Source: an uncultured Neisseria sp. (GTDB taxonomy: Bacteria; Pseudomonadota; Gammaproteobacteria; Burkholderiales; Neisseriaceae). Taken from it: DNA of 64,000 nt. Shown piece after piece: positions 16,692-61,369 of the stretch. The notes under the pieces were generated by a model. The model did not search any database. It was given only the letters and a program-made list of their open reading frames with translations, and had not been told where the DNA came from. Every line of letters begins with the position of its first letter. Position 1 is the first letter of the stretch. The position numbers and the translations under genes were made by a program. The stretch covers positions 2,562 through 66,561 of the forward strand of contig CAUSKT010000002.1 of NCBI GenBank assembly GCA_963532335.1. Direction: 5' to 3'.

Positions 16692-16840
16692 TATAGTGGA
16701 TTAAATTTAAACCAGGACAAGGCGACGAAGCCGCAGACAGTACAGATAGTACGGAACCGATTCACTCAGCACCTTAGAGAATCGTTCTCTTTGAGCTAAG
16801 GCGAGGCAACGCCGTACTGATTTAAAGTTAATCCACTATA
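16692..16840. mobile_element. Correia repeat-enclosed element (~149 bp)
   Basis: TATAGTGGATTAAATTT...AGTTAATCCACTATA. The right-end junction reads CACTATAAT, creating a TATAAT at 16837..16842. Confidence 0.9.
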
Positions 16841-38536: not shown

Positions 38537-38570
38537 TCCCGAAAGGTCGTCTGAAACCCGAATCCGTTTT

Positions 38571-38666
38571 AGTAAAACCCGCTTCGCTCGTTTTAGCGAA
38601 ACTCGCTTCGCTCGTTTTAGCGAAACTCGCTTCGCTCGTTTTAGCGAAACTCGCTTCGCTCGTTTT
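38571..38666 (+). repeat. Tandem array of four 24-bp units (AGCGAAACTCGCTTCGCTCGTTTT) nested in an inverted DUS pair
   Basis: Units at 38571-38594 (diverged), 38595-38618, 38619-38642 and 38643-38666 (three identical). Flanked by AGGTCGTCTGAA (38544-38555) and TTCAGACGACC (38665-38675). Confidence 0.95.
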
Positions 38667-38713
38667 CAGACGACCCCTTTTTACAAATATAAATATTGAT
38701 ACAAACATTACTT

Positions 38714-39911: not shown

Positions 39912-39951
39912 AGGTCGTCTGAAAACTTGCCACGCTCGTTTTCAGACGACC
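39912..39951. terminator. Inverted DUS pair whose loop is a single copy of the 24-bp repeat core
   Basis: AGGTCGTCTGAAAACTTGCCACGCTCGTTTTCAGACGACC. The loop/stem top AAACTTGCCACGCTCGTTTT matches the array-unit consensus. Confidence 0.7.
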
Positions 39952-42477: not shown

Positions 42478-42500
42478 GGCGAAACTCGTTGCACTCGTTT
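42478..42500 (+). repeat. Single 24-bp-family unit fused to a reverse DUS
   Basis: GGCGAAACTCGTTGCACTCGTTT-CAGACGACC in the hldD/hldA spacer. Confidence 0.8.
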
Positions 42501-42539
42501 CAGACGACCTTGGAAAGACGGGGTCGTCTGAAAAAGAAA

Positions 42540-46653: not shown

Positions 46654-46742
46654 AGCAATTCCTGATGATGGCAAATTCAATAGCCCGTAGCGCGGGCTTG
46701 GTTCGCGAAACTTAATGCCGAAACCGACTGATTTCAGATTTT

Positions 46743-46790
46743 GGCGAAACCCGCTTTGTTCGTTTTGGCGAAACCCGCTTCGCTCGTTTT
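46743..46790 (+). repeat. Two 24-bp-family units fused to a reverse DUS
   Basis: GGCGAAACCCGCTTTGTTCGTTTT GGCGAAACCCGCTTCGCTCGTTTT-CAGACGGCC. The kdsB stop codon lies in the DUS. Confidence 0.9.
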
Positions 46791-58638: not shown

Positions 58639-58658
58639 AATGGCTCCGAGGTCGTCTG

Positions 58659-58706
58659 AAAACGAGCGCAGCGAGTTTCGCTAAAACGTGTGCAGCGCGT
58701 TTCGTC
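58659..58706 (-). repeat. Two 24-bp-family units (complement orientation) following a forward DUS
   Basis: AGGTCGTCTGAA(58649-58660) overlapping AAAACGAGCGCAGCGAGTTTCGCT AAAACGTGTGCAGCGCGTTTCGTC, then the degenerate AAACAGACGGC. Confidence 0.9.
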
Positions 58707-59185: not shown

Positions 59186-59233
59186 AGCGAAACTCGCTGC
59201 GCTCGTTTTGGCGAAACTTGCTGCGCTCATTTT
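59186..59233 (+). repeat. Two 24-bp-family units fused to a reverse DUS
   Basis: AGCGAAACTCGCTGCGCTCGTTTT GGCGAAACTTGCTGCGCTCATTTT-CAGACGACC. Confidence 0.9.
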
Positions 59234-59664: not shown

Positions 59665-59736
59665 GACGAAACTCGTTACACTCGTTTTGGCGAAACTTGC
59701 TGCACTCGTTTTGGCGAAACTTGCTGCGCTCGTTTT
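59665..59736 (+). repeat. Three 24-bp-family units fused to a reverse DUS
   Basis: GACGAAACTCGTTACACTCGTTTT GGCGAAACTTGCTGCACTCGTTTT GGCGAAACTTGCTGCGCTCGTTTT-CAGACGACC. Confidence 0.92.
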
Positions 59737-60533: not shown

Positions 60534-60571
60534 TTTGAATGCCTTTCCAAATCTAGGAATGAGGTCGTCTG

Positions 60572-60595
60572 AAAGTGGGCGCAGCGGGTTTCGCT
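60572..60595 (-). repeat. Single 24-bp-family unit (complement orientation) following a forward DUS
   Basis: AGGTCGTCTGAA(60562-60573) overlapping AAAGTGGGCGCAGCGGGTTTCGCT. Confidence 0.75.
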
Positions 60596-60677
60596 AAAAA
60601 CCATACAACGGATTCCACCCAAACGGACAATCCGTTTCAGACGACCTTTCAAATCATTGATACCGGCAAGGCAGGTG

Positions 60678-60995
60678 TTACGCCAGCCAGTTGTGCACCC
60701 ATTTGGGCAGGTGTTGGAGCAGTTGGAAATAGCCGACGCCCGCAATGGCGGCAAATACGCAGGAAGTCATAAAGTTACCGCTGAAGCGTCCGACGATATA
60801 AAACACTGCGCTGGCAAATGCCCACAATGCGCCGTTAAACACCATCCAATAGGTGTCGATCATCGGCATATCGAACGCGGAAAGCTGACGGACGAGAATG
60901 GCGATGATGGTAAATCCCAAACCTTCGCTGACGGCGCGCACGTTGCGGCCGGACGACCAGATAATCCAAAAGCCCAAAATAAATGCTTCAAACAT
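60678..60995 (-). CDS. Small hypothetical membrane protein embedded between hisA and hisF
   Basis: 105 aa with three or four hydrophobic helices. No family recognised. Confidence 0.55.
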   Translation of the reverse strand: MFEAFILGFWIIWSSGRNVRAVSEGLGFTIIAILVRQLSAFDMPMIDTYWMVFNGALWAFASAVFYIVGRFSGNFMTSCVFAAIAGVGYFQLLQHLPKWVHNWLA

Positions 60996-61272
60996 GAAAT
61001 ACCCCTTGAAAAGTAAATAAAACTAGTGAGTGTGGGATGGTGAGTCCCAAACAATATTCGGCGGTCAGCCGCCTTTTATTGTGAAGAAAAATGGACGAAC
61101 CCGTCTTTTGTCCTGCCTGTGAAGACAGGACAACAATGAAAGCAAACAGGTTCAACCGAGTATTGTGTATCTTCGCCCCGCTATATTGTTTGAAAACAGC
61201 GGGACAAGTGAGTAAGAAAACGTTTGGTCATTTCAGACGACCTGGATGGTTGTTTTTAAATAAGGTCGTCTG

Positions 61273-61369
61273 AAAACGAGCGTAGCGAGTTTCGCTAAAA
61301 CGAACGCAGTGAGTTTCGCTAATAATGAGTGCAACGAATTTCGCCAAAACGAGTGTGGCGGGTTCCGCC
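61273..61369 (-). repeat. Four 24/25-bp-family units (complement orientation) following a forward DUS
   Basis: AGGTCGTCTGAA(61263-61274) overlapping AAAACGAGCGTAGCGAGTTTCGCT AAAACGAACGCAGTGAGTTTCGCT AATAATGAGTGCAACGAATTTCGCC AAAACGAGTGTGGCGGGTTCCGCC. Ends 8 nt before the hisA stop. Confidence 0.9.

Follow-up and report, generated by a model that had tools for sequence, protein, structure and literature searches.

The DNA analysed here, called the window, is a 64-kb (64,000-nucleotide) stretch of contig CAUSKT010000002.1 from an uncultured Neisseria sp., and our subject is a 24-bp unit with the consensus RGCGAAACTCGCTKCGCTCGTTTT that recurs along it in tandem arrays. One array lies in the gshB-dgkA spacer, where four units run head to tail at positions 38571 to 38666 between a DNA uptake sequence (DUS), AGGTCGTCTGAA, at 38544 and its reverse complement (rcDUS), TTCAGACGACC, at 38665. 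The left DUS (38544 to 38555, plus strand; an AG-mucDUS) forms the left arm of an inverted DUS pair after gshB, and it is overlapped by a 24-bp segment in the register of the array, TCGTCTGAAACCCGAATCCGTTTT (38547 to 38570, plus), which is the original hairpin loop and is conserved in all strains. There follow on the plus strand a diverged distal unit, AGTAAAACCCGCTTCGCTCGTTTT (38571 to 38594), orthologous and stable across strains, and three identical DUS-proximal units, AGCGAAACTCGCTTCGCTCGTTTT (38595 to 38666), which are the copy-number-variable part of an array totalling 2 to 6 units in other strains. The rcDUS (38665 to 38675, minus) abuts the last unit and is followed by a terminator-like CCTTTTT. 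Tandem Repeats Finder described the array by a period of 24, 4.2 copies, 96% matches and a score of 183. Both it and the sequence bear out the first-pass annotation of this DNA, which had reported three identical units and one diverged unit between a DUS pair.

We then looked at the rest of the window. A consensus search allowing up to 3 mismatches gave 14 matches against 0.00 expected from 100 shuffles, and a looser search together with a position-weight-matrix scan located 19 full units at 8 loci plus a partial unit at a ninth. Matrix scores of real units were 28 to 39, against a maximum of 10.3 in shuffled sequence. Tandem Repeats Finder reported further period-24 arrays at 46739, 58659, 59182, 59661 and 61273. 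A single unit, GGCGAAACTCGTTGCACTCGTTTC (42478 to 42501, plus), abuts an rcDUS upstream of the start of an epimerase gene. Two units (46743 to 46790, plus) abut the rcDUS CAGACGGCC, and the stop codon of the minus-strand kdsB gene lies inside that DUS. Immediately 5' of a HIT-family gene, two units (58659 to 58706, minus) abut a DUS at 58649 to 58660. Two more (59186 to 59233, plus) sit between hisI and hisE, and three (59665 to 59736, plus) between hisF and hisI, each array abutting an rcDUS. A single unit 5' of hisF (60572 to 60595, minus) is enclosed by an inverted DUS pair (60564 and 60636), while four units after hisA (61273 to 61369, minus), with a 1-nt indel at 61321, abut a DUS at 61265; their distal unit, GGCGGAACCCGCC.., is stable across strains. 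Of the eight additional loci originally proposed, seven thus hold full units, but the one at 39912 to 39951 (plus) is partial only. There the loop of an inverted DUS pair is a 5'-truncated unit (..GAAAACTTGCCACGCTCGTTTT directly before CAGACGACC), joined to the left DUS at a GAAA microhomology and scoring 15.6 in the matrix scan. No unit was found by these scans between 1 and 38 kb, and the family is clustered in the window, not evenly dispersed.

The genes at 39 to 64 kb are xseA, an epimerase gene, a PfkB kinase gene, pyrF, adk, kdsB, two DUF2059 protein genes, lpxK, apbE, prfA, genes for an Nramp-like protein and a nitroreductase, tatC, tatB, the HIT-family gene, hisE, hisI, hisF, a 105-amino-acid open reading frame (ORF), hisA, and genes for a SpoIIAA-like protein and an EamA transporter. 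The minus strand carries nearly all of them, and all are housekeeping genes, with no mobile-element gene among them. The his-operon arrays occur in both orientations (58.66, 60.57 and 61.27 kb minus; 59.19 and 59.67 kb plus). Orientation thus tracks the adjacent DUS, not transcription, which speaks against a strand-specific RNA function. The window has no GC-skew switch, which rules out an effect of a replication origin or terminus. A gene within the clusters that might be responsible for the arrays was ruled out at 39 to 64 kb by this housekeeping content, and other clusters have unrelated contents (sialic-acid and polysaccharide genes, a photolyase gene, an ABC transporter gene and an RNase H gene).

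Every array in the window ends in ...CGTTT(T) directly against CAGACG(A/G)CC, that is, against a reverse-complement DUS, so the orientation relative to the DUS is invariant, as the first-pass annotation had stated. We extended the comparison to 222 arrays within about 0.9 Mb of collected loci, about 190 of them from Neisseriaceae. The sequence after the last TTTT was CAGACGACC in 125 arrays, CAGACGGCC in 21 and the Eikenella dialect CAGGTAGCC in 16, and was off by one in 9. In the remaining arrays the DUS was mutated, a 30-bp variant unit had shifted the register, the DUS was of the AT type (L101) or the array ran into one other repeat, starting CAGAGTGCGCAGCC. Several DUS dialects (muc, AG, eik, sim/king in L072 and the one AT case in L101) share the junction to the base, and in Alysiella it is present with that genus's own dialect. 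The wider consensus search for DUS linkage thus found the junction fixed across Neisseriaceae arrays and dialects.

DUS ten-mers are abundant in the window (102 GTCGTCTGAA and 11 GCCGTCTGAA; 113 per 64 kb, or about 1 per 570 bp). At least 4 T residues directly precede 65 of the 107 rcDUS cores (CAGACGRCC), so the effective DUS here is GGTCGTCTGAAAA. DUS account for only 44 of the 106 intergenic TTTTC sites, yet all nine loci (eight arrays and the partial unit) abut a DUS, so the T-run alone is insufficient to explain the coupling. Enclosure by an inverted DUS pair, which had been noted at 38544 to 38675 and does hold there, is not general: among 158 arrays with clean junctions, 96 have a single DUS and 39, about a quarter, are enclosed by a pair. 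DUS dialects were reportedly described by Frye in 2013, and by those dialects the DUS types of the window point to the N. mucosa/sicca group, as does its 95 to 99% identity to contigs of N. sicca, N. mucosa and Neisseria sp.

A few arrays depart from the usual arrangement. In some Neisseria genomes, at L032, L054 (3 sites) and L122 (2 sites), the unit adjoins another conserved repeat, beginning CAGAGTGCGCAGCCTCYTG.CGGGA.G.CC, instead of a DUS. In Eikenella (L015, L062, L064, L098 and L119) and in Neisseria sp. CCUG12390 (L101), a 30-bp variant, AGCTTCGCAGAAACTCGCTGCGCTCGTTTT, is mixed in with the 24-bp units. Rare Eikenella variants start with GTAG and carry a matching CTAC.

We next compared unit numbers at orthologous loci in strains and metagenome-assembled genomes (MAGs). 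The gshB-dgkA spacer holds 2, 3, 4, 5 or 6 units depending on the strain, and its length differences are exact multiples of 24 bp; even contigs encoding an identical DgkA have spacers of 129, 153, 177 and 225 bp, corresponding to 2, 3, 4 and 6 units. Elsewhere the ranges were 0 to 1 at 42.5 kb (the empty allele reads TTTTGATTTTT directly before CAGACGGCC), 2 to 4 at 58.7 kb, 1 to 2 or more at 59.2 kb, 1 to 3 at 59.7 kb and 2 to 4 at 61.3 kb, while the locus at 60.6 kb had 1 unit in all strains seen. Six of seven loci are therefore polymorphic, and the suggestion that the element resembles a variable-number tandem repeat (VNTR) stands.

Some 2-unit gshB-dgkA alleles (L001, L003 and L005; about 2790 to 2950) also hold a Correia-like insertion, TATAGTGGATTAA…, at a TA just past the rcDUS, orthologous to window position ~38682. 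Synteny downstream of this array varies, with mnmA and an AMP-binding gene in some strains and xseA in others.

The arrays are polar. Counted from the DUS, units at positions 1, 2 and 3 had on average 1.27, 2.88 and 4.30 mismatches to the consensus, and the distal unit was the more diverged in 81 arrays, against 5 showing the reverse (Wilcoxon p = 8e-15). Because the scans demanded a near-consensus unit somewhere in the array but at no set position, ascertainment is not the source of this polarity. At each orthologous locus the distal (5') unit is conserved and recognisably orthologous, and the DUS-proximal units vary in number and sequence. Array turnover therefore takes place at the DUS-proximal end, with an old, diverged unit kept stably at the distal one. 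Arrays outside Neisseriaceae are polar in the same way, namely those of Nitrosomonas L124 and the metagenome contigs L145 and L147. Stalling at a hairpin formed by an inverted DUS pair was ruled out as its cause, since most arrays have a single DUS.

Units are also copied between loci. A variant with multiple substitutions, ..CGATTCTCTCG, is common to the 58.7- and 59.2-kb loci, including within one MAG, and unit types are regional, with G-type units (GCTGCGCTCG) throughout the his region and T-type units (GCTTCGCTCG) at the 38.6- and 46.7-kb loci. Some distal junctions are of the microhomology type, a partial unit being joined at GAAA to a DUS upstream of it. Other genomes have clusters of 4 to 5 arrays per 8 kb, and 95 of the 198 arrays among the genome-scan matches listed are orthologues of those at 38.6 to 61.4 kb; by these estimates the family is low-copy and regionally clustered.

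To see how widely the unit occurs, we scanned one genome per species for a near-consensus unit, which yielded at least 118 stretches. Among the matches listed were N. sicca, N. mucosa, N. oralis, N. perflava, N. subflava, N. flavescens and many other Neisseria, together with Eikenella longinqua, E. glucosivorans and Alysiella crassa. Two further records, labelled N. meningitidis and N. lactamica, were contigs 94 to 98% identical to the window, and from this identity the records are probably mislabelled. No unit was present within 12.7 kb around hisF in N. meningitidis (two loci) or N. gonorrhoeae, whose hisF-hisI spacer is only 30 bp; at the exact place of the window's DUS and three units, it contains a DUS alone.

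In Eikenella, a DUS with units lies in frame (…LPE-NERSEFRQ…) in a GT52 glycosyltransferase, a Branch-domain enzyme, a DNA photolyase, a DnaJ-domain protein and the DprA linker, and SETRYARFGETRCARF is found in a C-N hydrolase-like protein of the Neisseria type. Like the occurrence of both orientations, in-frame units within ORFs argue against a strand-specific RNA function. A protein census with tandem peptides returned only 16 matches at E <= 10, as single units score too low. AGCG-type units have TAG in two frames. GGCG-type units have no stop codon in any of the six frames, but the same holds for 16% of shuffled 24-mers, and a stop-free design was rejected as not significant.

The unit is not confined to Neisseriaceae. 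It was found in Gallionella and Sideroxydans MAGs, Nitrosomonas sp. Nm34, a Rhodocyclales MAG, Tepidimonas, Aquabacterium and high-GC Burkholderiales-like contigs, and there were single matches of uncertain meaning in Anaerolineales, Verrucomicrobiales and a Christensenella-labelled MAG. Chance matches to the unit pattern are estimated at about 1 per 596 Gb. A metagenome scan leaving out the DUS junction returned only 16 stretches from 241 million records, so the element is rare outside Neisseriaceae. Here too it occurs in frame: in a surface loop of aroA (GNF[GETRCARF]PVK), at the second codon of polA (M[KTSEASFA]KTLLLVDGSS), in a signal peptide, at two other N termini and in an IS3-family transposase, between GNCW and DNAP. 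For the transposase, empty plasmid-borne homologues read GCGTTG-T-CCCARC and filled ones GCGTTG-T-GGCGAAACTCGCTGCGCTCATTT-T-CCCAGC, a difference of exactly 24 bp with a 1-nt ambiguity. For aroA, Gallionellaceae homologues are mostly empty (..GNF directly before PVK..), and at the DNA level one empty allele, AATTTT directly followed by CCGG, compares with four filled alleles, AATTTT[24 bp]CCGG, in backgrounds only 75 to 90% identical to one another. These empty-site homologues prove the de novo insertion of a whole unit in two cases. Copies of the IS3-family element carry 1, 2, about 2.5 or 5 units, which makes it a plausible horizontal carrier.

Two other sources were rejected. A phage origin found no match in IMG/VR, and for a plasmid origin a 3-unit query of PLSDB found nothing, a result to which low-complexity filtering by BLAST may contribute; the plasmid IS3 homologues are empty sites. 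In two contigs from one metagenome (L145, 460 to 580, and L148, 2126 to 2173; GC 0.67 to 0.70), the 5' flank is shared and the 3' flanks differ within IS3-transposase-like sequence, which suggests either recombination between arrays or diverged copies of one insertion sequence. A second, unrelated 24-bp in-frame aroA insertion (…GAGGCCCTTCGACAAAGCTCAGGA…, peptide xLRQSSGQ) occurs in several Gallionellaceae about 50 bp upstream of the unit site (L154, 516 to 540; proteins P0147, P0154, P0157, P0159, P0188, P0198 and P0233). It resembles a widespread proteobacterial REP motif of the 'FDKLRANG' type. Its presence suggests that 8-codon mini-insertions are more general in Gallionellaceae.

We then asked whether the unit might act through a secondary structure. 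An AGCGA-AAC-TCGCT hairpin (positions 1 to 5 with 9 to 13) had been proposed for each unit. The complementarity is present, but covariation of these positions is at the level of shuffles (0.230 against 0.223, a value reached by 116 of 500 shuffles). There is covariation in a different, nested set of pairs (8-20, 11-17 and 12-16), with 38 double-change cells against 10.3±2.6 in shuffles, none of 500 of which reached that number (Fisher p = 7e-9, 7e-8 and 2e-3, respectively). This set was chosen post hoc from the same data, in units related by descent, and we regard the nested hairpin as a lead, not a finding. At these pairs (e.g., 38602 with 38614), compensatory-looking double transitions from C-G to T-A and from G-C to A-T are seen, and T12 occurs almost only with A16. 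A selected hairpin, quasi-palindrome correction or the spread of sub-families could each have caused them.

The two inverted DUS at 38544 to 38680 form a predicted stem followed by a T-run, and tuning of termination by the array had been raised as a possible function. Equilibrium folding of the gshB-dgkA spacer with 0 to 9 units gave a predicted DUS stem probability of 0.97 throughout, so comparison of arrays by unit number revealed no effect of copy number on the terminator stem, and terminator tuning is unsupported at equilibrium. An Rfam search of the window from 36 to 64 kb at E <= 1 returned only a chance-level match to mir-208 (E = 0.72).

How does the family compare with known repeats? 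An exact-sequence search of the searchable literature (8 million papers) found no match to the unit, and an account of commensal DUS in the folP region does not mention the repeat. Neither Rfam nor the papers and neisserial repeats compared yielded a match; for REP5, a 20-bp repeat of N. meningitidis, the comparison covered length only, with indirect evidence from the absence of units in 12.7 kb of the his region of N. meningitidis and N. gonorrhoeae. The first-pass annotation had set the unit apart from Correia, dRS3/NIME and clustered regularly interspaced short palindromic repeat (CRISPR) arrays and had recognised in it no named neisserial repeat. Unit length, absent motifs and absent spacers uphold the first statement, and the literature, Rfam and the REP4 consensus agree with the second. 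A CRISPR array is ruled out because the period equals the unit length of 24 bp, leaving no spacers, and 'SRE' is not a separate named repeat but a synonym of Correia.

The unit shares its host genus and intergenic setting with Correia and other neisserial repeats (REP2 to REP5 and ATR), and in some strains a Correia element adjoins the array. Correia elements (CREE/NEMIS), however, are 104- to 157-bp miniature inverted-repeat transposable elements with 26-bp terminal inverted repeats and a TA duplication, whereas the unit is 24 bp, lies head to tail and has no terminal inverted repeats. The element dRS3/NIME is the Neisseria REPIN (CGTC-1), a 20-bp palindromic ATTCCC-N8-GGGAAT with the seed ATTCCCGCGCAGGCGGGAATC that occurs in inverted pairs and goes with a Group 2 RAYT; the unit consensus lacks that motif and is unrelated in sequence. 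REP2 (120 to 150 bp) and REP3 (60 bp) are longer than the unit, and the 26-bp REP4 consensus, AAGACCGTCGGGCATCTGCAGCCGTC (Parkhill 2000), is unrelated to it.

More broadly, the unit resembles REP/BIME and REPIN-RAYT systems in being short (20 to 40 bp in those systems), intergenic and able to cluster, in spreading without coding capacity and possibly in being recognised as a single-strand hairpin. Unlike them, it has no strong palindrome and forms head-to-tail arrays instead of inverted pairs. No GTAG or CGTC tag emerges from the column composition of 155 distinct units, only the rare Eikenella variants approaching one by beginning with GTAG, and no RAYT (Y1 transposase) gene is present in the window at 39 to 64 kb or in the clusters L119, L064, L054 and L013. 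With eight arrays and a partial unit in the window, 222 arrays in about 0.9 Mb and copy-number polymorphism, the family is a dispersed 24-bp minisatellite. Like MIRU and other interspersed VNTRs, it is one unit family at many mostly intergenic, often intra-operon loci, head to tail and polymorphic among strains. It differs from MIRU in its length (24 bp against 46 to 101 bp), its single-base coupling to the DUS, its strong polarity, its lack of a fixed orientation to flanking genes and its single exact insertions in other orders. Like the Rickettsia palindromic elements (RPE), it is tolerated in frame, in aroA, polA, IS3 transposase, GT52 glycosyltransferase, photolyase, the DprA linker and the DnaJ-domain protein, but RPE are palindromic single copies of 100 to 150 bp, whereas the unit is 8 codons long, tandem and in Neisseriaceae accompanied by a DUS. 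The array at 38544 to 38675 lies in the loop of an inverted DUS pair with a T-run after it, as in intrinsic terminators of that kind; the repeat is nevertheless something added to the DUS and belongs to the definition of neither the DUS nor the terminator, and most clean-junction arrays have a single DUS. The family works most like a minisatellite of the MIRU kind with an RPE-like tolerance in ORFs. We did not find DUS coupling, polarity or cross-order exact insertions reported for MIRU, RPE or the other families compared. Polarity, DUS coupling across dialects and exact 24-bp insertions outside Neisseriaceae also go beyond the first-pass annotation.

We favour a reading that we judge evenly balanced between right and wrong, in which the unit is a non-coding, DNA-level minisatellite that spreads as whole units and, in Neisseriaceae, does so by DUS-anchored copying. 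The arrays themselves are most likely selfish or neutral. New units would arise from an existing array by copy choice, either through template switching or as ectopic gene conversion over a short patch. The extended DUS GGTCGTCTGAAAA at the end of a nascent or invading strand would pair with an array-bearing DUS elsewhere, the homology anchor being the 13 to 16 nt of extended DUS that are identical at about 1 site per 600 bp. The strand would copy one or more units and then return via the AAAA/TTTT (or GAAA) microhomology that ends every unit. Units would thereby be placed between the T-run and the DUS, the empty target being TTTTCAGACGACC, with ..TTTT directly before CAGACGACCT; the DUS-proximal units would be overwritten most and nearby donors favoured. 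Local slippage could afterwards expand or contract the arrays. Outside Neisseriaceae only the T-run microhomology would be available, so that the element would stay at one to few copies, and the unit would travel partly within an IS3-family element. Longer operon spacers, larger terminator loops and 8-residue protein insertions would be side effects. Copying of this kind would account for the junction, its fixed orientation and its independence of dialect, for polar and clustered arrays, for regional sub-families and for partial units fused at GAAA to an upstream DUS, and it would explain why the family is amplified only where DUS exists.

Several observations weigh against DUS-anchored copying. 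Its steps are inferred, and, because the collection scans required a near-consensus unit, the apparent conservation across taxa is partly built in; the copy number per genome and the clustering are estimates from the genome-scan matches listed. Outside Neisseriaceae, several insertions are complete units in the same phase with little or no flanking microhomology (1 nt at the IS3 site and none visible in L149, L145/L148, L049 and L109), to which insertion of a discrete 24-nt piece by an enzyme is a better fit than template switching. Distant orders share a near-identical consensus and a G/T dimorphism at position 14, which a neutral, slippage-prone sequence does not explain, so that horizontal carriage or constraint is needed. 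The covariation at 8-20, 11-17 and 12-16 is likewise unpredicted by a purely neutral model and hints at a selected single-strand hairpin. Together, the weak-microhomology insertions, the cross-order consensus and the covariation keep an enzyme-mediated mechanism as the main rival.

In that rival, which we consider possible though unlikely, a dedicated enzyme would move the unit in trans as a non-autonomous mobile element of very small size. The enzyme could be an HUH/Y1 (RAYT- or IS200/IS605-like) single-strand nuclease-ligase cutting after TTTT by a small hairpin, or a templated, telomerase-like reverse transcriptase. Whole units would be inserted 3' of a T-run before C(A), and the TTTT of the unit would recreate the target and so give head-to-tail arrays. 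Such an enzyme would suit insertions of exactly one unit in constant phase even with 0 to 1 nt of flanking microhomology, a single consensus across distant orders and a covariation that a recognised single-strand hairpin could produce. At 10 of 13 independent non-Neisseriaceae sites the first base of the 3' flank is C, and in Neisseriaceae the flank starts with CAG(A), including the non-DUS contexts CAGAGTGCG and CAGAAAACG, and the filled aroA allele recurs in divergent backgrounds amid mostly empty homologues. However, no transposase, RAYT or reverse-transcriptase gene lies near any examined cluster, the consensus has no GTAG or CGTC tag, and known HUH substrates are far larger than 24 nt with a stem of 2 to 3 bp. 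Within one co-directional operon the arrays face both ways, so there is no replication-strand bias of the IS200/IS605 kind; self-targeting at any TTTT would not alone give polarity, and partial units joined at a GAAA microhomology exist. A bolder version, which we think rather improbable, would make the unit the smallest known actively mobilised element, extended by directional, trans-acting addition of whole units at ...TTTT before CA by an HUH-type or telomerase-like activity, with TTTT as the re-alignment register and, in Neisseriaceae, coupling to the DUS during the processing of transforming single-stranded DNA.

We doubt that the DUS-proximal unit is instead a selected cis-element acting with the DUS, with the distal units as its decaying duplicates. 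Proposed roles would be enhancement of uptake or transformation (and hence spread driven by transformation), binding of a conserved protein or modulation of the DUS-hairpin terminator. The single-base junction and fixed orientation to the DUS across dialects and genera are what such an element would show, as are the better conservation of the proximal unit, the near identity of the unit in Neisseria and Eikenella despite otherwise diverged intergenic DNA and a covariation suggestive of structure. Yet units are found at only about 9 of the 65 T4-preceded DUS in the window (113 DUS matches in all), their copy number is freely polymorphic, they lie both ways relative to transcription and inside ORFs, they are also inserted in taxa without DUS, and the predicted terminator stem is the same with 0 as with 9 units. 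N. meningitidis and N. gonorrhoeae are fully transformable, and they lack units in the orthologous his region. Independent slipped-strand duplication of the DUS-hairpin loop in place, with no transfer between loci, is highly improbable and as a purely local process is contradicted: it would fit runs of identical variant units within one array (e.g., four ..CTTCGTTCG in L004), length differences of exact multiples of 24 bp and the likeness of the unit to the inner part of the DUS-pair hairpin (GAAAC...GTTTT), but it cannot explain how dozens of loci, at least four DUS dialects and other orders come to share one 24-mer, nor how complete foreign units reached naive sites or why different loci have a complex variant in common.

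With this family the N. mucosa/sicca/subflava groups and Eikenella gain a repeat that is apparently uncatalogued. In the window it has widened operon junctions to spacers of roughly 100 to 380 bp, compared with 12 to 30 bp at the hisA-hisF-hisI junctions of N. meningitidis. By tying the DUS to a specific local process through a one-base junction across dialects, it offers a handle on the DUS as an anchor for recombination or template switching, and the arrays are ready-made VNTR markers for typing strains of oral Neisseria. The exact 24-mer insertions in Gallionellaceae, Nitrosomonas, Rhodocyclales and Burkholderiales, partly in an IS3-family element, make the spread of a 24-bp sequence across lineages testable, and enzymes evidently tolerate 8-codon units inside them. 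If units are added during transformation, uptake-sequence biology would directly generate heritable repeat arrays and 8-residue protein insertions.

The arrays also explain artefacts of annotation. Stop-free arrays are read through by gene callers, so that HisF is N-terminally extended to 279 to 287 amino acids instead of 255 and small ORFs are called across the gshB-dgkA array; read-through sites are at 60534 to 60600 in the window, in P0003 to P0005, and at L008 2777 to 2995 and L010 2832 to 3029. The 105-amino-acid ORF between hisA and hisF (60678 to 60995, minus) has no Pfam match. It occupies the same place in Neisseria sp. 83E34 (L132, 5619 to 5936) and is absent from N. meningitidis and N. 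gonorrhoeae, in which hisA and hisF are 12 bp apart. Finally, the 9-mer CAGACAGTA, the core seen in the Correia-like insertions, is doubled at window positions 16734, 21884 and 55176, and the window probably also carries Correia elements.

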